The notes beneath the pieces are model-generated. The model was not told the DNA's origin. It worked only from the letters and a program-made list of their open reading frames with translations, and did not search any database. Below are positions 13,092-21,163 of a stretch of 64,000 bases of DNA, one piece after another. Position numbers and translations under genes: made by a program. The stretch lies in contig JAZOQX010000135.1 of NCBI GenBank assembly GCA_045656325.1, positions 16 to 64,015 on the forward strand, written 5' to 3'. The DNA comes from Eubacteriales bacterium. GTDB lineage: Bacteria > Bacillota > Clostridia > Oscillospirales > CAG-272. Position 1 is the first letter of the stretch; each line of letters starts with the position of its first letter.

Positions 13092-13742
13092 TTACTGATT
13101 GAACATCTCCAAAAAATCGTTGAGCAGAGAGAGCAGAAACGGAAGAAATCCAAGGACCGTCAGCATCACGGCAAGGATGACGACGGCAAAAACGACGGCT
13201 CCGCCCAAGGTACTTCCCTTTCCCTCGAATTTGATATCCGCCATGTATTTCATATCCTCGGGAATATAGAAATGGTGATGATCGGGGTCCACGCGGAAGT
13301 CGGCTCTCGCCTTCTTTCCTTTTCCCTTTCTTCCCTTCTCCGCGTATGTTTGCCAATACGCTTCCTCCTCGGCGCAGCGAACCACGCGGCGCAGGGACAG
13401 GCTCTTCCGAACCGCCCTTCGGATCATAAGCTTGTCCGCGTAATTCAGCTCGGGCAGCGTTTTCCCGCTTTCGGGGGACAGACATTCCTCCGCAAGGAGG
13501 TGTCGGACGAATCTTCCGAGGATCTGCTTGTTGTAGACCGCCACGAAGCCGCCCAGCGCCAATCCCAAAAAGATTCCGATGATGATCAGACGCAGGGAGA
13601 GGGCTCCCATGACGCTCAGGTTGATATTGGAATATTCGGGAAGATCCCCGAAAAATGTTTGATAAAGATTGTCCCAGATGCCCTCAGAGGAGGAAGGCAC
13701 CTCTGCCGATGCGGTCAAGGCGTATATCCATCTACCCTTCAT
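13092..13742 (-). CDS. Hypothetical membrane protein
   Basis: The protein is 216 aa with two clear hydrophobic helices flanking a Lys/Gly-rich loop. It sits in a tight operon context between rarA and serS. I recognise no family. Confidence 0.55.
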   Translation of the reverse strand: MKGRWIYALTASAEVPSSSEGIWDNLYQTFFGDLPEYSNINLSVMGALSLRLIIIGIFLGLALGGFVAVYNKQILGRFVRHLLAEECLSPESGKTLPELNYADKLMIRRAVRKSLSLRRVVRCAEEEAYWQTYAEKGRKGKGKKARADFRVDPDHHHFYIPEDMKYMADIKFEGKGSTLGGAVVFAVVILAVMLTVLGFLPFLLSLLNDFLEMFNQ

Positions 13743-13757
13743 GGGCTCCTCCGATTT

Positions 13758-15038
13758 TTATTTTTTAATGATCTCCGCGCCTACGTACTTGCGGAGAACC
13801 TCGGGGACGACCACAGAGCCGTCTGCCAACTGGTTCTGCTCCACGAGGGCAGGAAGAATGCGGCTGGTTGCCAGACCCGATCCGTTCAGGGTGTGGACAA
13901 ATTCGGTCTTTCCGTCGGCTCTCTTGACGCGCATCATGCCGCGGCGCGCCTGATAATCGCGGGCGTTGGATACGGAGGATACCTCCTTGTATCCGTTCAT
14001 GGAGGGAATATTGATCTCAATGTCGTAGGTCCGCGCCATGGATGCCGAGCAGTCCTCAGCCGCCAGCTTGACCGTGCGGAAGTGGAAGCCAAGTCCCTTG
14101 ACGAGGTTCTCCGCATTGGCTACCAGCTCCTCAAACGCCTCGTCGCTCTTTTCGGGCAGAGTGTACTGAACCATTTCCACCTTGTTGAACTGGTGTCCTC
14201 TGACCATTCCTCGCTCGTCGGCGCGGTAGCTGCCCGCCTCGCGGCGGAAGCAGGGGGTGTAGCTGATATATTTACGGGGCAGATCTGCCTCGGTAAGGAT
14301 CTCGTCTCTGTGCAGAGAAACCAAGGCGGTCTCCGCAGTGGGAAGCATAAAGCGGCGGCGCTCGTCCTCGGCGGTTTCCAGCCAATAAACGTCATCGGCA
14401 AATTTGGGGAACTGACCCGCAGTCAGACCGCACTCGTAGCCCAGCATATGGGGGACCAGCACCAGCTCGTAGCCGTTGCCGATGTGGGTATCCACAAAGT
14501 AATTCAGGAGCGCCCACTCAAGACGCGCGCCCATTCCGCGGTAGATCCAGAAGCCCGCGCCAGAAAGCTTGGTTCCTCTCTTGTAGTCGATCAGACCCAA
14601 ATCGGTGCAAAGATCCACGTGGTTCTTAGGCTCGAAATCAAAGACCTTCGGCTCGCCGAAGAAGCGCAGAGGTTCGTTGTTTTCCTTTCCGCCGGGCAAA
14701 AGATCCTCATCGGGCAGATTGGGAAGACCCAGCATGACCGACTGGAACTGCGTTTCCACGGACTTGAGCTTCTCATCGATCTCCTTGGTTTTGGCGCTCA
14801 TTTCCTTCATCTGAACGAAGATAGCGGAAACGTCCTTTCCCTCCTTCTTGTAGGCGGGGATCAGTTTGTTCATTTTGTTCTGCTCTGCCTTGATCGACTC
14901 GGTTTCGGCGATCAGGTTTCTTCTTTCGGCATCCAGCGACAAAATCTGCGCGATTTCTTCCTTGGCATCCTTGCCCTTCTTGGCAAGTCTGGCGATTACT
15001 TCCTCGGGTTTTTCCTTGATATATTTGATATCTAACAT
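13758..15038 (-). CDS. serS: Seryl-tRNA synthetase
   Basis: I place the start at the ATG at 15038 (MLDIKYIKEKPEEV), preceded by AGGAGA. The protein has class II aaRS motifs, a coiled-coil N-terminal arm, and TLNGSGLATSR near the C-terminus. Confidence 0.93.
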   Translation of the reverse strand: MLDIKYIKEKPEEVIARLAKKGKDAKEEIAQILSLDAERRNLIAETESIKAEQNKMNKLIPAYKKEGKDVSAIFVQMKEMSAKTKEIDEKLKSVETQFQSVMLGLPNLPDEDLLPGGKENNEPLRFFGEPKVFDFEPKNHVDLCTDLGLIDYKRGTKLSGAGFWIYRGMGARLEWALLNYFVDTHIGNGYELVLVPHMLGYECGLTAGQFPKFADDVYWLETAEDERRRFMLPTAETALVSLHRDEILTEADLPRKYISYTPCFRREAGSYRADERGMVRGHQFNKVEMVQYTLPEKSDEAFEELVANAENLVKGLGFHFRTVKLAAEDCSASMARTYDIEINIPSMNGYKEVSSVSNARDYQARRGMMRVKRADGKTEFVHTLNGSGLATSRILPALVEQNQLADGSVVVPEVLRKYVGAEIIKK

Positions 15039-15072
15039 GACTTTTCTCCTAATTTCCAATTATTTCCAATTT

Positions 15073-15969
15073 TTAGTTTGCGGTTTCGTTAAAAATGTCG
15101 TTTCCGCAGAGCATCTGAAGCAGAGCCTCCAGATCCTCGTCGTTATCATAGCTCAGCTCAACCACTTTCTTTCTGGCGGAGCGAGAGATCCGTACCTTTC
15201 TTCCCAAGGTAGAGGTGGCGCGATGCTCCAGCTCCTTCATGTGTACCTTTACCTGTGTGGGAACCGTTTCCTCTTTTCCCTCGATGGATTGCAGATTCTT
15301 GATGCGGTTGACCAATGCCTCGACCTCTCGGACCGAAAGGTTTCTCTGCAGAATGCGCTGGGCGATCTCCAGCATACTTTCCTCGGTGGGAAGTCCGAGA
15401 AGGGCTCTTGCGTGTCCCGCGCTCAGATCTCCCGAACGGAGCATTTCCAATACCTCGGCGGGCAGGTCCAGAAGGCGAAGCATATTGGCAACGGCAGAAC
15501 GGCTCTTCCCTACCTGCTTTGCCACCTCTTCCTGTGTCATACCGAATTTCTCAATCAGAGAGCCGTATCCCATGGCTTCCTCCACGGGGTTGAGGTCCTC
15601 TCGCTGAATATTTTCGATCAGAGCCACCTGAGCTGCCTTCAGCTCGTCCCCGTCAAATACTACCGCGGGGATCTCGGTAAGACCTGCCATCTTGGCAGCG
15701 CGCCAACGGCGCTCTCCCGCAATGATCTCGTAGAGTCCGGGAATGTCGCTGTTTTCCTTGACGATGATGGGCTGCAGCACGCCGTACTCGGCAATCGAGT
15801 CTGCCAGCGCCTCCAACGCCTCTTTTTCAAAGGTTTTTCTGGGCTGATCCCGTCTTGGTTCAATGTCGGACAGGCGGATGCTCTTGCCCGAGCCGCTTCC
15901 CAAGGAATTATCATCCAGAATATCGTAGAACTGTCTTCCAAGTCCTCTTTCTTCAATTTTTCTTGCCAT
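15073..15969 (-). CDS. spo0J: Chromosome partitioning protein ParB/Spo0J
   Basis: The protein is 298 aa. It has the ParB-box/CTPase motif IIAGERRWRAA, the HTH segment TQEEVAKQVGKSRSAVANMLRLL, and the N-terminal RGLGRQF motif. Confidence 0.92.
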   Translation of the reverse strand: MARKIEERGLGRQFYDILDDNSLGSGSGKSIRLSDIEPRRDQPRKTFEKEALEALADSIAEYGVLQPIIVKENSDIPGLYEIIAGERRWRAAKMAGLTEIPAVVFDGDELKAAQVALIENIQREDLNPVEEAMGYGSLIEKFGMTQEEVAKQVGKSRSAVANMLRLLDLPAEVLEMLRSGDLSAGHARALLGLPTEESMLEIAQRILQRNLSVREVEALVNRIKNLQSIEGKEETVPTQVKVHMKELEHRATSTLGRKVRISRSARKKVVELSYDNDEDLEALLQMLCGNDIFNETAN

Positions 15970-15989: not shown

Positions 15990-16217
15990 TTACTTGAAAT
16001 TTTTGAAGTTTGCGCGCACACTTCTGTTTTTGTGCTTGGTCTCATACAGGCTTTTGGTTTCCCGAGGGGGATTTGGATCGTTGGCGGAGGGGGCGATATG
16101 GATCGTCTCGTCACCCTGCCGCAGCGATGCGCTTCCCTTCCCGCTTCGGATCTGAGGTGTGTTGTCCTCCAACAGCTCGCCAAGGCTTCTGCCGAGTCCT
16201 GACGGTTTCTTTGCCAT
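15990..16217 (-). CDS. Small protein carrying a ParB N-terminal-like motif only
   Basis: This is a 75-aa ORF. The SD AAGGAGGAG lies 6 nt upstream of the ATG and overlaps the soj stop codon. The N-terminus MAKKPSGLGRSLGELLED resembles ParB N-termini. No ParB-box or HTH follows. Confidence 0.6.
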   Translation of the reverse strand: MAKKPSGLGRSLGELLEDNTPQIRSGKGSASLRQGDETIHIAPSANDPNPPRETKSLYETKHKNRSVRANFKNFK

Positions 16218-16228
16218 GGCTCTCCTCC

Positions 16229-16990
16229 TTATATTCTGGTTGCCAATTCCTTGGCGACCTCAAGATATTCCTTGGCTCCCTTGGAATTTTTATCGTGGTA
16301 ATACGCGGGCTTTCCAAAGCCGGGCGCCTCGGTCAGCTTGACGTTTCTGGAGATCTTCGTCTCAAAGAGACGATCCGAATAATGCTTCTCCAATTCGGCA
16401 ATGACCTGCATGGAAAGAAGAAGTCTGCCGTTATACATGGTGATGAGAATGCCGCTCAAGGTCAGGTCGGGATTATACAAGCGCTTGATGCGGTTGATCG
16501 TCACCATCAGCTGAGAAAGTCCCTCCAGCGCGTAAAATTCGCACTGCATCGGCACGATAACGCCATCGCTGGCGGCAAACGCGTTGATGGTCAGCATACC
16601 CAAGGATGGCGGGCAGTCGATCAAAATGTAATCGTAGGTATCCTTCACCTCTGCCAACGCGGTTTTCATGCGAAATTCGCTGTCCTCGAAGTCAAACAGA
16701 TCAAATTCCGCTCCTGCTAATGCGGTATTGGTGGGAATCACCGACAGATTTTGATAGGGTGTTTCTACGGCAATCTCCGACGCGGGCTTTTCTCCTGTCA
16801 GCAGATCGCGGGTGGATGCCTTCAGCCCCTTCTTGGAAATTCCCACGCCGCTGGTGGTATTTCCCTGAGGATCGAGGTCAACGATCAATACTTTATGTCC
16901 CAGCAAACCGAGGGATGCGGCAATATTCACGCAGGAGGTGGTTTTTCCCACTCCGCCCTTTTGGTTTGCGAATGCGATAATCTTTCCCAT
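16229..16990 (-). CDS. soj: ParA/Soj family chromosome partitioning ATPase
   Basis: The protein is 253 aa. It has the deviant Walker A motif KGGVGKTT at the N-terminus and a typical Soj length and organisation. Confidence 0.93.
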   Translation of the reverse strand: MGKIIAFANQKGGVGKTTSCVNIAASLGLLGHKVLIVDLDPQGNTTSGVGISKKGLKASTRDLLTGEKPASEIAVETPYQNLSVIPTNTALAGAEFDLFDFEDSEFRMKTALAEVKDTYDYILIDCPPSLGMLTINAFAASDGVIVPMQCEFYALEGLSQLMVTINRIKRLYNPDLTLSGILITMYNGRLLLSMQVIAELEKHYSDRLFETKISRNVKLTEAPGFGKPAYYHDKNSKGAKEYLEVAKELATRI

Positions 16991-17052: not shown

Positions 17053-17081
17053 ATTATAGCATAGTCTCATCAATTTTGCAA
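17053..17081 (-). promoter_or_regulatory. Sigma-70-type promoter for the soj operon
   Basis: On the minus strand the -35 is TTGCAA (17076-17081), followed by a 17-nt spacer and a -10 TATAAT (17053-17058). Confidence 0.6.
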
Positions 17082-17146
17082 GGGCTATCCACAATAAATT
17101 TTGAAAAATAACGGGAGAAACGCGGTTTTCCGCATTTCTCCCTGTT

Positions 17147-17162: not shown

Positions 17163-18029
17163 TTACTTATTCAACCGAATAACCACCTCTAAAGCCTTCG
17201 TTCCGTTTGCGACGTTCATGGATATGTCCTTGCCTTCTCTGCGCCAACTTTCCATTTTTCGGCGCAAATGGCGAAGAACCTCCATTGCCTCGTCCTCGGA
17301 GTCCGTAAATTCAAAGCCCGCGATCCGCATTGGCTCCTCGATTGAAATTGCGGAGCTTTCGGGGGTATTTAACAGTGCCTCTACGTACCGTTCGGTTTCC
17401 TGCACGTTCATTTTCTCGTCGGAAACCTTCTGTATCGCCGTTTTTCTTGCGTCAGCTGAACCAAGACGCAGCATGGCTCGGGCGTGCCGCTCTGACAAGC
17501 CCATTTCCAAAATCATGCATTGCTCCTCATAGGATAGCTTCAGGAGTCGCAATTTGTTGGCAACGGCGGACTGACTCATGGACATTCGCCTCGCAACCTC
17601 ATCCTGCGTCAGCTTATGGCGGTCGATCAGCTTTTTGAAGCCGTATGCCTGCTCGAACATATTCAGATCTTCTCGCAGTAAATTTTCTATAATTGCTAAT
17701 TCGGCGGAAATTTGCTCGGTTGCTTCCATTACAATGCACGGAACGGTCAGATATCCCAATAATTTGGACGCGCGCAATCGCCGTTCTCCCGCAATCAGCT
17801 CGTAAGAATAGCTGTCGTCCTCGTCCTCGGTGCGCCGAACGGTCAGAGGTTGGAGGATTCCGTATCGGCGGATGGAGTCGGCGAGTCGAATGATTGCGTT
17901 TTGATCAAATTCGGCACGGGGCTGCGCACGGTTGGGACGAATGTCGTCGGTTTTAATCTGCACGATCTGGGCGGATATCTCCTCGGGTAATTCCTGCTTT
18001 TGCCGTCGAAAATACTTTAAGTCGGTCAT
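17163..18029 (-). CDS. ParB/Spo0J-family paralogue in the Noc-like genomic position
   Basis: The protein is 288 aa. It has LIAGERRLRAS and the HTH segment TQDEVARRMSMSQSAVANKLRLL. It lacks the GLGRGL-type N-terminal motif. Confidence 0.85.
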   Translation of the reverse strand: MTDLKYFRRQKQELPEEISAQIVQIKTDDIRPNRAQPRAEFDQNAIIRLADSIRRYGILQPLTVRRTEDEDDSYSYELIAGERRLRASKLLGYLTVPCIVMEATEQISAELAIIENLLREDLNMFEQAYGFKKLIDRHKLTQDEVARRMSMSQSAVANKLRLLKLSYEEQCMILEMGLSERHARAMLRLGSADARKTAIQKVSDEKMNVQETERYVEALLNTPESSAISIEEPMRIAGFEFTDSEDEAMEVLRHLRRKMESWRREGKDISMNVANGTKALEVVIRLNK

Positions 18030-18228: not shown

Positions 18229-18957
18229 TCAAAGCGGTTTTTTTGATATTTTGGAGAAATGTCTCGGATAAATTTTTGGAGTGGTTTTTTTCTTTTGGAT
18301 AATAATTAATTTTCTTTCCTCGATATTTCCGTTCTGATCGATCAAGCTGCAAGGGATCCGATCGGCAACCTTTCCACCACATAGTGAAATACAGTTGGCG
18401 GCCTCGGTCAATTCTTCCTCGGCTTGCTGCGATTTCATGGAGATCATAGAGCCTCCGACCTTAACAAAGGGGAGGCAAAGCTCGCTAAGCATTCGCAGGT
18501 TGGCCACCGCTCGCGCGGTGGCTACGTCAAATTGCTCGCGAAATTCCTGTTTTGCGCCATATTCCTCAGCACGTCCCGCAATGGCGGTTACGTTGCCAAG
18601 CCCGAGCATAGAAGCGGTTTCTTCTACGTAGCGGATGCGCTTTGCCGTTCCGTCCAAAGCCACGATGCGAAGATCGGGGCGAAAGATTGCCAAAGGAAGG
18701 GAGGGGAAGCCCGCTCCGCAGCCGACGTCGATCACGGAGGCGTTTTGAGGGATAGATGCGGATATCATCAAGGAATCGACGTAATGCTTTAAAATAATTG
18801 CGTTTTCTTCGGTGATAGCCGTTAAATTCATAGATTGGTTGACGAAAAGCATTTTTTCGGTCAGCTTGTATAGCGATTGCGCCTGAGATTCATTACATTC
18901 CAAGCCGTTTTTGGAAAAGGTGTCTTGGCACGCTCTTGTAAATTCGGATAAGGTCAT
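18229..18957 (-). CDS. rsmG: 16S rRNA (guanine527-N7)-methyltransferase
   Basis: The protein is 242 aa. It has the SAM-binding segment VIDVGCGAGFPSLPLAI and the canonical position between mnmG and the par genes. Confidence 0.9.
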   Translation of the reverse strand: MTLSEFTRACQDTFSKNGLECNESQAQSLYKLTEKMLFVNQSMNLTAITEENAIILKHYVDSLMISASIPQNASVIDVGCGAGFPSLPLAIFRPDLRIVALDGTAKRIRYVEETASMLGLGNVTAIAGRAEEYGAKQEFREQFDVATARAVANLRMLSELCLPFVKVGGSMISMKSQQAEEELTEAANCISLCGGKVADRIPCSLIDQNGNIEERKLIIIQKKKTTPKIYPRHFSKISKKPL

Positions 18958-18991: not shown

Positions 18992-20854
18992 TTATTTCAT
19001 GCCCAGATAAATCAGTAAAACAGAAATATCCGCGGGATTTACTCCACTGATTCTCGATGCCTGCCCGATGGTGGCGGGGCGGATCTTGTCAAGCTTTTGC
19101 GCCGCCTCAATGCGAAGTCCTTTTATGGAGAGATAATCCAAATCCTCGGGAAGTCGTTTCGTTTCCAAGCGTTCGTGGCGTTCCACCTCTCGCAGCTGCC
19201 TTTTGATATATCCCTCGTATTTAATGGAAACCTCGGCTGTCTGTATAACGCGAAGGGGAAGGGAAGGGCGATGAGGATCTACCTCGGCGAGCATTTCGTA
19301 GGTGATATCGGGTCTGCGTAACAGATCGGCAAGGGATGCGCCGCTATTCAAGGGCTGCATTCCATATTTTTCCAAAAATGCCCGATAATATTCGGGGGAG
19401 CCATGGGTGGACTCCAAACGCTCGATCTCGGCTTTGATCTGCTCCTGCTTCTTCAAAAATTGTTGATAGCGCTCCTCCGAAATCAAGCCCGCAGCATATC
19501 CCTTGGGGGTCAGTCGGGCATCGGCGTTGTCCTGTCTGAGAAGAAGACGGTATTCCGAGCGGGAGGTCATCATGCGATACGGCTCGTTGGTTCCCTTGGT
19601 TACCAGATCGTCAATGAGGGTGCCGATATAGCTTTCCGAGCGGGAAAGGATCAAGGAGTCCCTGCCGTGAAGCTTTAAGGAGGCGTTCAGCCCCGCGATC
19701 AAGCCCTGCGCCGCCGCTTCCTCGTAGCCCGAGGTGCCGTTAAACTGTCCCGCGCCGTACAGTCCTTCCAAAAATTTACATTCCAAGGTGGGATAAAGCT
19801 GGGTGGGGTCCATGCAGTCGTATTCAATGGCATAAGCGTAGCGCATTACCTCTGCCTTTTCGAAGCCCTGCAGAGAGCGGAGCATCTTGTGCTGAACGTC
19901 CACGGGAAGGGAGGTGGAAAAGCCTTGAATATACATTTCCTCGGTGTCCGCTCCCACGGGCTCCACAAAGAGCTGGTGGCGTTCCTTGTCCGAAAAACGA
20001 ACCAGCTTGTCCTCGATGGAGGGGCAGTATCGGGGACCTGTGCCGTGAATTTGTCCCGAATACATGGCAGAGCGCGTAATATTCTCCCGAATGATCCGAT
20101 GGGTGTCGGCGTGGGTATACACCACGTGGCAGGGAATCTGCTCTTTTTCGTCAAAATCGGATTCCCTTGTCAGGGAGGAGTAGGGAATGATGGGCGCTTC
20201 GCCGTCCTGACGCTCCAATCCGTCAAAATCAATGGAACGTCGGTTGACGCGGGCGGGCGTTCCCGTTTTGAAGCGCATCAAGCGAATGCCGAGACGGGAA
20301 AGAGAATCCGAAAGTCCCTTGGCGGCAAGAAATCCGTCGGGACCGCTTTCATAGTTGACGTCTCCCACGAAAATGCGACTTTCCAAATAGGTTCCCGTAC
20401 AAATGATGGCGGCGCGGCACTGCCAAACCTCCCCAAGGCGGGTGGTAACCGAGCATACCTTGCCGTTTTCGGTACCGATATCTACGATCTCTGCTTGAAT
20501 CAAACGAAGATTGGAAATTTTTTCCAATCTTTCCTTCATCAAGCGGTGATATTCCTTTCGGTCGGCTTGAATACGCTTGGAGTGAACCGCCGCTCCCTTG
20601 CCGAGGTTCAGGGTTCGGGATTGGAGCGTGACCAGATCGGCGACCCGACCCATTTCACCGCCCAACGCGTCGATTTCATAAACCAGATGCCCCTTTCCCG
20701 TACCGCCGATGGAGGGATTACAGGGCATATTGGCGATGGATTCCAAGGACATGGTAAAAAGGACCGTATCCGAACCCGTTCTTGCTGCCGCCAGCGCGGC
20801 TTCGATTCCCGCGTGACCCGCGCCGATAACGGCGACCTCTGTAGTTGCTGACAT
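18992..20854 (-). CDS. mnmG: tRNA uridine 5-carboxymethylaminomethyl modification enzyme MnmG (GidA)
   Basis: I place the start at the ATG at 20854 (MSATTEVAVIGAGHAGIEA, FAD-binding GxGxxG). The track ORF begins 17 codons upstream at a TTG. Typical MnmG motifs run throughout (GTTPARV, GPRYCPSIEDK). Confidence 0.93.
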   Translation of the reverse strand: MSATTEVAVIGAGHAGIEAALAAARTGSDTVLFTMSLESIANMPCNPSIGGTGKGHLVYEIDALGGEMGRVADLVTLQSRTLNLGKGAAVHSKRIQADRKEYHRLMKERLEKISNLRLIQAEIVDIGTENGKVCSVTTRLGEVWQCRAAIICTGTYLESRIFVGDVNYESGPDGFLAAKGLSDSLSRLGIRLMRFKTGTPARVNRRSIDFDGLERQDGEAPIIPYSSLTRESDFDEKEQIPCHVVYTHADTHRIIRENITRSAMYSGQIHGTGPRYCPSIEDKLVRFSDKERHQLFVEPVGADTEEMYIQGFSTSLPVDVQHKMLRSLQGFEKAEVMRYAYAIEYDCMDPTQLYPTLECKFLEGLYGAGQFNGTSGYEEAAAQGLIAGLNASLKLHGRDSLILSRSESYIGTLIDDLVTKGTNEPYRMMTSRSEYRLLLRQDNADARLTPKGYAAGLISEERYQQFLKKQEQIKAEIERLESTHGSPEYYRAFLEKYGMQPLNSGASLADLLRRPDITYEMLAEVDPHRPSLPLRVIQTAEVSIKYEGYIKRQLREVERHERLETKRLPEDLDYLSIKGLRIEAAQKLDKIRPATIGQASRISGVNPADISVLLIYLGMK

Positions 20855-21163
20855 TTTTATATTCCTTTCAAGCGAAGGGGATTTCGCTCCGCTGAGAATT
20901 ATCAATCTTTCATATGTTTTTTTCGATTTTCCCTTGCCAAGGGCGTATGATTATGCTACAATAGAAGCAGAATCAAGAGAAGCGTCTCTCTACCTTCGGG
21001 GACCTTGATGCGCGCGCCTGCGAACCGATGGAAAAAAGATCCCAAGTTAGGGAGAGGCAACGGGAGAGATCGATTACTGCTATTATACCAAATTCTCTCT
21101 TGCTTTTCAAGAGGGAGAAGAAATTTTCGCGCGAAAATGATATGTAAAAAAGGAGATACGAAA

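Follow-up and report, generated by a model that had tools for sequence, protein, structure and literature searches.

The chromosomal ParABS system is usually seen as a closed system of two proteins, in which the ParA-activating peptide works only when closed ParB clamps pair two copies of it. Described here is a small open reading frame (ORF) between soj (parA) and spo0J (parB) in a 64,000-nt stretch of contig JAZOQX010000135.1 (assembly GCA_045656325.1, Eubacteriales bacterium), referred to below as the window. Sequence evidence suggests that, in one group of gut Clostridia that are all uncultured, this ORF is a third component of the soj-spo0J operon, one that is undescribed in the literature searched. 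Coordinates are those of the 64-kb window, and all genes and features of the region lie on the minus strand.

The soj/parA gene (16229-16990) encodes a deviant Walker A ATPase of 253 amino acids (aa) matching Pfam AAA_31/CbiA/ParA, and spo0J/parB (15073-15969) encodes a 298-aa protein with a ParB_N domain (GERRWRA), a helix-turn-helix (HTH), and a C-terminal domain. Within the 259 nt from the soj stop to the spo0J start lies the small gene (15990-16217; ATG start, 75 aa plus stop), a member of an unannotated soj-parB family, which begins 11 nt past the soj TAA and ends 20 nt ahead of the parB ATG. An earlier note on this DNA had placed a 75-codon ORF in this gap, with a strong Shine-Dalgarno sequence overlapping the soj stop, and both statements are confirmed: AAGGAGGAG (16222-16230) shares two bases with the soj TAA (16229-16231). 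The junction reads ...ATA TAA GGAGGAGAGCC ATG, with GGAGG 6 nt ahead of the small-gene ATG. Upstream of soj is a near-consensus sigma-70 type promoter, TTGCAA-17-TATAAT with the TG of an extended -10 element (17053-17081), called by consensus match alone with 10/12 positions matched, and a search for minus-strand terminators from soj to parB turned up none. Because a promoter precedes soj and no terminator interrupts the series, soj, the small ORF, and parB look like a single transcription unit; the small gene is probably co-transcribed with both neighbors and probably translationally coupled as well. A search of the whole window on both strands against Rfam returned no family at gathering score, and none in the soj-parB gap.

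Conservation along the small protein is strongly uneven, with a mean pairwise identity of 80% over residues 1-21, 19% over residues 22-54, and 54% over residues 55-72. The N-terminal module (codons 1-21, MAKKPSGLGRSLGELLEDNTP; 16155-16217) carries a ParB-type ParA(Soj)-binding motif with the family consensus M-[AS]-K-K-x-S-G-L-G-R-G-L-G-[DE]-L-L-[ED]-D-N-x-P, in which G7, L8, G9, R10, L12, L15, D18, N19, and P21 are invariant across 45 homologues and K3 and K4 are nearly so. It is followed by a variable linker (codons 22-54; 16056-16154), which in relatives holds a weakly conserved V-x-[VI]-R...I-x-I-[TS]-P hairpin and then 0-100 aa of disordered sequence. The linker includes the stretch IAPSANDPNPPRE, in which the earlier note saw a faint echo of the ParB I-x-P-x-x-x-QPRK box; this likeness does not hold up, as the stretch lies in the least conserved region of the protein (19%) and the profile alignment with ParB described below ends at residue 35. 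The C-terminal tail (codons 55-75, KSLYETKHKNRSVRANFKNFK; 15993-16055) is conserved, basic, and aromatic.

Members of the family fall into three subtypes: a short form of 60-80 aa, to which the window copy belongs, a long form of 100-174 aa with an acidic disordered linker, and a distant form with an N-terminal extension. In short forms the C-terminal module reads L-[YF]-[ED]-x-K-P-K-N-[RK]-S-[VL]-K-[AS]-N-F-[KR], and its long-form counterpart is R-S-L-K-A-[LV]-F-R-x-[YF]-K (e.g. RSLKALFRSYK). AlphaFold2 (AF2) models built with the family alignment are of low confidence for both forms (predicted template modeling score, pTM, 0.22-0.23). The window short form is modeled as mostly disordered (pTM 0.22) with a single helix at residues 12-18, and a long member is modeled with helices at 12-19 and, C-terminally, at 112-118 (predicted local distance difference test, pLDDT, ∼82), between which lie a hairpin at 29-40 (pLDDT 75-80) and a disordered linker. 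Several short forms (L005, L010, L012, L013, L017, L023, and L029) carry a doubled 'SLYD/LYD-T-x-P-[KR]' element just ahead of the tail, e.g. SSLYDTTPRSLYDTKPRTKSVKSNFK, suggesting that the tail region has expanded by internal repetition. Examples of tryptic peptides of the window protein are SLGELLEDNTPQIR and QGDETIHIAPSANDPNPPR.

The small gene belongs to a sizable family. A single-sequence search returned 48 homologues of 57-113 aa, and a profile search of 1.84 billion representative proteins returned 71 representatives at 50% identity, all of 39-160 aa and none of ParB length. Counted as clusters at 90% identity, the profile search gives 430 for the small family, and the best 120 of these 430 are 61-174 aa long, carry no Pfam domain, and are named 'hypothetical protein' at most. 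Scans of the 75-aa protein and 39 family members against Pfam, NCBIfam, and PHROGs gave no hit, and no description of the family was found in the literature searched. A collection of species-representative genomes holds 35 loci with a homologue, all in metagenome-assembled genomes (MAGs) from animal guts with Eubacteriales, Oscillospiraceae, or Clostridia labels. The gene is conserved in these related Clostridia: in 35/35 loci it occupies the soj-parB interval, in the orientation of both neighbors, within the shared order (rsmG)-(noc)-soj-small gene-parB-serS, and Soj is 74-99% identical among the genomes that carry it. Of the 34 relatives listed, almost all have GGAG or GGAGG 5-9 nt ahead of the ATG. 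An uninterrupted ORF is present in 36 species-level genomes, and every length difference is in frame. Long-subtype genes occupy the soj-parB slot on every contig long enough to reach the upstream gene, and distant-subtype genes do likewise on contigs carrying P0113, a member that overlaps both the soj stop (ATGA) and the parB start, the latter by 32 nt. A position directly downstream of soj also recurs in loci L036 and L038-L044.

Selection on the small gene was gauged from close pairs with the Nei-Gojobori method. Across these pairs the synonymous divergence (dS) was 0.3-1.7, and the ratio of nonsynonymous to synonymous divergence (dN/dS) of the small gene was 0.010-0.083 in seven of the eight, where soj and parB gave 0.010-0.057; the serS value for the window and L002 is an alignment artefact and was ignored. 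Individual values were 0.010 for the window and L001 (dS 1.14), 0.05 for L004 and L007, 0.056 for L012 and L013, 0.06 for L021 and L027, 0.065 for L025 and L026, and 0.083 for L013 and L029, with the highest, 0.25, for L006 and L008. Because dN/dS is low and similar to that of soj and parB, the small ORF is taken to be a genuine protein-coding gene under purifying selection and not a decaying fragment. These values also bear on a very unlikely alternative, that the ORF is a leader whose translation alone matters, coupling ribosomes from soj to parB and setting the Soj:ParB ratio. The tight spacing to both neighbors, with overlap of both in some members, would suit such a role, and ParB levels are reported to be under post-transcriptional control in Caulobacter (bioRxiv 10.64898/2026.07.07.737113). 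Against it, the amino acid sequence itself is under purifying selection, with 80% N-terminal identity and invariant motif residues, and outgroups achieve coupling by direct soj-parB overlap with no such ORF.

The origin of the N-terminal module can be traced to ParB. BLASTP aligns residues 1-57 of the small protein with residues 1-52 of the adjacent ParB at 36% identity, and an hhalign comparison of the family with the first 110 residues of the cognate ParBs reaches a probability of 96.7% (E value 3.4e-10) over 35 columns, residues 1-35 of each. By this comparison the homology spans the flexible N-terminal peptide of ParB and ends ahead of the CTPase domain. Neither the CTPase domain nor the GERRxR box was found by Pfam and NCBIfam scans of the small protein and the 39 members, and profile scans found no HTH parS-binding domain or C-terminal dimerization domain; the AF2 models offer a short helix and a hairpin, with the rest disordered. 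The earlier statement that the ORF has neither a ParB box/CTPase motif nor an HTH agrees with these scans and with the empty PHROG search. Lacking the domains that define the ParB family (PF02195, PF17762, and TIGR00180), the protein, as judged from sequence, is not a ParB. A frameshifted or split ParB was considered and rejected: every genome has a complete ParB N-terminus, and the small ORF has a conserved tail and a stop.

Eighty outgroup loci, fetched from metagenomes via the ParB N-domain at 38-66% identity, place the origin of the small gene in one clade. None holds a stand-alone homologue, the family hidden Markov model (HMM) matches only the N-termini of full-length ParBs in these loci, and soj mostly runs straight into parB, at a spacing of -10 to +60 nt in most cases. 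The long soj-parB gaps of L055, L063, and L090 are unusual in length and contain no ORF resembling the small gene, only sequence that is AT-rich or repetitive, or unrelated frames. One of these junctions is unusual in its own right, a 444-nt AT-rich spacer of tandem direct repeats without an ORF (L063, 1912-2357), and is unrelated to the small gene. Since profile homology to ParB is limited to residues 1-35, and since outgroup loci lack a stand-alone homologue and have abutting soj and parB, we infer that the small gene is a clade-specific insertion derived from a duplicated parB 5′ end, about the first 35 codons, and kept since; the duplication would have occurred in the ancestor of a clade of uncultured animal-gut Clostridia.

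The earlier note had offered a partial duplication remnant of parB as one of two readings. The duplication of the parB 5′ end stands, on the hhalign result above, and the remnant does not: position, frame, Shine-Dalgarno sequence, dN/dS, and a C-terminal motif unrelated to ParB all speak against a non-functional relic. The homology to ParB residues 1-35 and the want of a recognized domain are what a relic, or a spurious ORF, would have in its favor, yet 36 species-level genomes carry an unbroken ORF, almost all of the 34 listed relatives have a Shine-Dalgarno sequence, dN/dS is 0.01-0.08 while dS reaches 0.3-1.7, and the tail is conserved across a family of 71 clusters at 50% identity. A non-functional relic or a spurious ORF is therefore extremely improbable.

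The motif of the small protein was compared with that of ParB by a position weight matrix (PWM) built from 56 outgroup ParB motifs, with outgroup ParBs scored leave-one-out. Outgroup ParB N-termini have the textbook form GLG[KR]GL[DG][AS]L[FIL] and score 37.1 bits (standard deviation 6.5). The small protein, whose window copy begins MAKKPSGLGRSLGELLED, scores 29.5 bits, and the match of its N-terminus to the ParB ParA-activating pattern that the earlier note pointed out is borne out, with LG(R/K)GL, the preceding basic residues, and all motif residues in place. The same-genome ParB scores 6.6 bits, and the small protein outscores it in 34/34 genomes. Within the window, GLG[RK]x[LFI] is present in the small ORF and ParB only. 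The window ParB's N-terminal peptide, MARKIEERGLGRQFYDILDDN (15907-15969), follows the clade form MAKKxGGLGR[GD]FY[DS]I[FLM]xDN; cognate ParBs carry GLGR[GDSQ]FY[DSE]I[FLMY]xDN, with L10, G11, R12, F14, I17, D20, and N21 invariant in the clade. The adjacent ParB motif had been called degenerate, which is right in that it departs from the canonical form but overstates the case, as the peptide is strongly conserved in the clade. Because the FY-type variant is nearly invariant there, the cognate ParB peptide is diverged yet constrained, and not decayed.

On this evidence the other reading of the earlier note, a separately encoded ParA-activating peptide, fits the sequence data, and it is plausible that the small protein acts as a stand-alone ParA-binding peptide. 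Soj is its presumed target, and a role for R10 in the motif is likewise presumed. The peptide determinants described in the literature are all invariant in the small protein. In the published system, the 20-residue ParB peptide (ParB1-20) suffices to bind ParA and, when DNA is present, to stimulate its ATPase, with about one-tenth the potency of closed clamps; the contacts with ParA are made by the hydrophobic residues of the peptide and a central R/K, and both sites of the ParA dimer probably need to be filled (PMC12462528). Because the determinants are all present and invariant, the small protein may be expected to bind the Soj-ATP dimer at the ParB site. On balance the small protein, derived from a parB duplication, is probably a modulator or activator that binds Soj on its own and is anchored through a separate tail. 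As proposed, it would occupy the ParB docking site on Soj-ATP dimers independently of the ParB clamp and modulate Soj turnover, most probably through stimulation. Its tail would anchor or concentrate it on a second surface, either the membrane or a partner protein, and surface concentration might offset the weak activation expected of a lone, monovalent peptide. As ParB keeps its own diverged and conserved peptide, the small protein would be an addition to the Par system, a third component possibly sharing the ParA-contact role with ParB. The earlier suggestion that ParA stimulation is uncoupled from DNA binding is in this respect incomplete: ParB retains a conserved peptide, and the small protein would be added to it and not replace it.

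The same motif evidence would serve a competitive buffer or inhibitor, in which the monovalent small protein fills the Soj pocket but triggers hydrolysis poorly, imposing a threshold passed only by the paired peptides of closed ParB clamps or lengthening the lifetime of Soj dimers on the nucleoid. A lone peptide has far less effect than a pair juxtaposed by the clamp, and both dimer sites may need filling (PMC12462528), and the diverged ParB peptide could have evolved to out-compete the small protein or to differ from it. In other systems, however, a saturating amount of the canonical peptide is by itself enough to stimulate ParA (PMC12462528), the central arginine and hydrophobic positions are kept, with R10 invariant, and a pure competitor would have no need of a conserved C-terminal tail. 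Competitive buffering or inhibition is a possibility of low probability.

The C-terminal tail has no counterpart in ParB. Its ∼10 residues carry a net charge of +3 to +4, with aromatic or aliphatic side chains spaced at i, i+3/4, and i+7, and its hydrophobic moment is the highest within the protein, at 0.68 in the window copy and 0.78 in long forms; that of the FtsA membrane helix is 0.81. In its terminal position, length, charge, spacing, and a moment approaching that of FtsA, the tail resembles the membrane helices at the C-termini of MinD and FtsA and at the N-terminus of Noc, although its mean hydrophobicity is below that of the MinD and FtsA helices. These features suit membrane targeting by a terminal helix or, equally, a short motif for protein binding, and the conservation of the tail argues that the small protein does more than diffuse freely. 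Nonspecific DNA binding by the tail would be less likely, because the linker of long forms is strongly acidic.

Several observations weigh against a tail-anchored Soj activator. The amphipathicity of the tail exceeds that of shuffled sequences only marginally, as its hydrophobic moment is reached by 7% and 1.8% of shuffles, and the C-terminal helix of the long-form AF2 model is not predicted in the short form. ParB retains its own conserved N-terminal peptide, and a second one is not obviously needed. In L045 (1-1296), the nearest outgroup, Soj is 74% and ParB 59% identical, the ParB N-terminus is of the FY type (MARGGLGRDFYSILDDN), and the soj-parB gap is 15 nt with no small gene. The short contig L037 (1-601) bears a distant-subtype gene (P0112) that overlaps the start of parB, with an opposite-strand gene upstream in place of soj, which would be either elsewhere or lost in that lineage. 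The gene is confined to uncultured gut Clostridia, its carriers all being uncultured MAGs, and Soj binding, the direction of the effect (activation or competition), and with them the function of the protein are deduced from motif identity.

The L045 locus also touches the relation between the two peptides. A strict association of FY-type ParB with the small gene, tried as a rule, is weakened by it: the FY switch is present there and the gene is not, so that the two are not strictly linked, and either L045 has undergone secondary loss or the switch is older than the duplication. It is conceivable, with a low likelihood, that the jobs of the ParB peptide have been split between the two proteins, such that a small protein anchored by its tail to the membrane or the partition complex is the main trigger of Soj hydrolysis and the FY-type ParB peptide only tethers Soj or serves another partner. 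If true, this would be a natural three-component ParABS whose ATPase activation can be separated from the CTP-gated clamp.

A related but somewhat more doubtful idea is that of an adaptor for a split ParB, with the hairpin and/or tail docking on ParB or ParB-DNA to supply the Soj-activating peptide in trans while the peptide of ParB itself is repurposed. Gene position agrees with it, as the small gene always lies immediately upstream of parB, overlaps it by 32 nt in some members, and adjoins it in L037 even without soj. The ParB peptide is diverged in 34/34 paired genomes, and Borrelia ParZ offers a precedent for a peptide carried by another centromere-associated protein (PMC9712426). On the other hand, the ParB peptide is strongly constrained, with K3/K4 and GLGR kept, L045 has an FY-type ParB and no small gene, and the adaptor draws on gene position and motif, from which the interaction with ParB would have to be deduced.

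Comparison with known systems places a Soj-binding modulator of this kind among several characterized ParA partners. The small protein is homologous over residues 1-35 to the LG(R/K)GL peptide of chromosomal ParB/Spo0J, of which T. thermophilus Spo0J 1-20 and M. xanthus ParB 1-20 are examples. The best sequence match in the PDB is T. thermophilus Spo0J 1-16, MSRKPSGLGRGLEALL against makkpSGLGRgLgdLL, a marginal hit (E 0.032) that is illustrative rather than proof; the Spo0J sequence nevertheless matches the small-family consensus MAKKPSGLGRGLGDLL in its basic residues, central arginine, and hydrophobic spacing. The bound ParB peptide is a short helix (PMC12462528), and the N-terminus of the small protein is predicted by AF2 to be helical too. 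Unlike in ParB, the peptide is unattached to a CTPase clamp, an HTH, or a dimerization domain; instead it heads a disordered protein of 60-170 aa with its own C-terminal motif, which coexists with a full-length ParB bearing its own peptide.

The closest precedent is ParZ of Borrelia burgdorferi, to which the small protein is likened from the published description of ParZ and not by sequence. Its gene directly follows parA, and ParZ, although not a ParB, has an LG(R/K)GL-type N-terminal peptide through which it controls ParA; it is proposed to stem from a parB 5′ end fused to foreign sequence (PMC9712426). ParZ, however, binds the centromere and spreads, and Borrelia ParB has lost the peptide, whereas the small protein has no detectable DNA-binding fold, the ParB peptide is kept, and the operon is intact. 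A broader class of ParA/MinD partners, including TP228 ParG, the PomX N-peptide, McdB, and MinE, is likewise encoded by small genes next to those of their ATPases (PMC12462528), and the small gene shares this adjacency and orientation, L037 being the exception. In this class a flexible, positively charged N-terminal peptide suffices for stimulation and is joined to a separate cargo or surface module (PMC12462528; see also PMC7993993 and PMC13170346). The cargo module there is a folded or oligomerizing domain, such as a ribbon-helix-helix, a coiled coil, or a condensate-forming region, whereas the small family has just a ∼12-residue C-terminal motif. The small protein would also act beside the normal partner, ParB, and not instead of it.

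The gene adds an unannotated family of 430 clusters at 90% identity, without a Pfam or NCBIfam model, to a very well-studied operon, and, if the proposed origin is right, the parB 5′ end has undergone a second, independent exaptation after that of Borrelia ParZ. The clade would also offer a natural experiment on the effect of a free peptide on ParA away from clamp closure, and on whether tethering and ATPase activation are separable. Such a gene illustrates how domain-based annotation overlooks short ORFs in the 'intergenic' gaps of core operons.

The wider neighborhood of the operon follows the order common to the family. Upstream of soj are mnmG (18992-20905), rsmG (18229-18957), and a noc-like ParB paralogue of 288 aa (17163-18029), and 3′ of the latter is a hairpin resembling an intrinsic terminator, with a 13-bp stem including 8 GC pairs and then a T run (17113-17142). 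Because this hairpin and then the soj promoter lie between noc and soj, noc and the soj-small gene-parB series look like separate units. A tie between the small gene and the noc-like paralogue was considered and rejected, since about ten genomes with the small gene have no noc; the paralogue is neighboring context that the small gene does not need. The N-terminus of the noc-like paralogue in relatives (loci L001-L041) is a conserved MT[DE]LKYFK[RK]xK, short, basic, and aromatic, which recalls the Noc membrane helix and is loosely like the C-terminal tail of the small protein. Downstream, serS (13758-15059) starts 13 nt past parB, and no T-box ahead of it is among the Rfam results for the window. 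Directly after serS comes an ORF of 216 aa (13092-13742), whose counterparts of 208-222 aa in L038-L042 have no Pfam hit and lie at the same position, making it a conserved neighbor.

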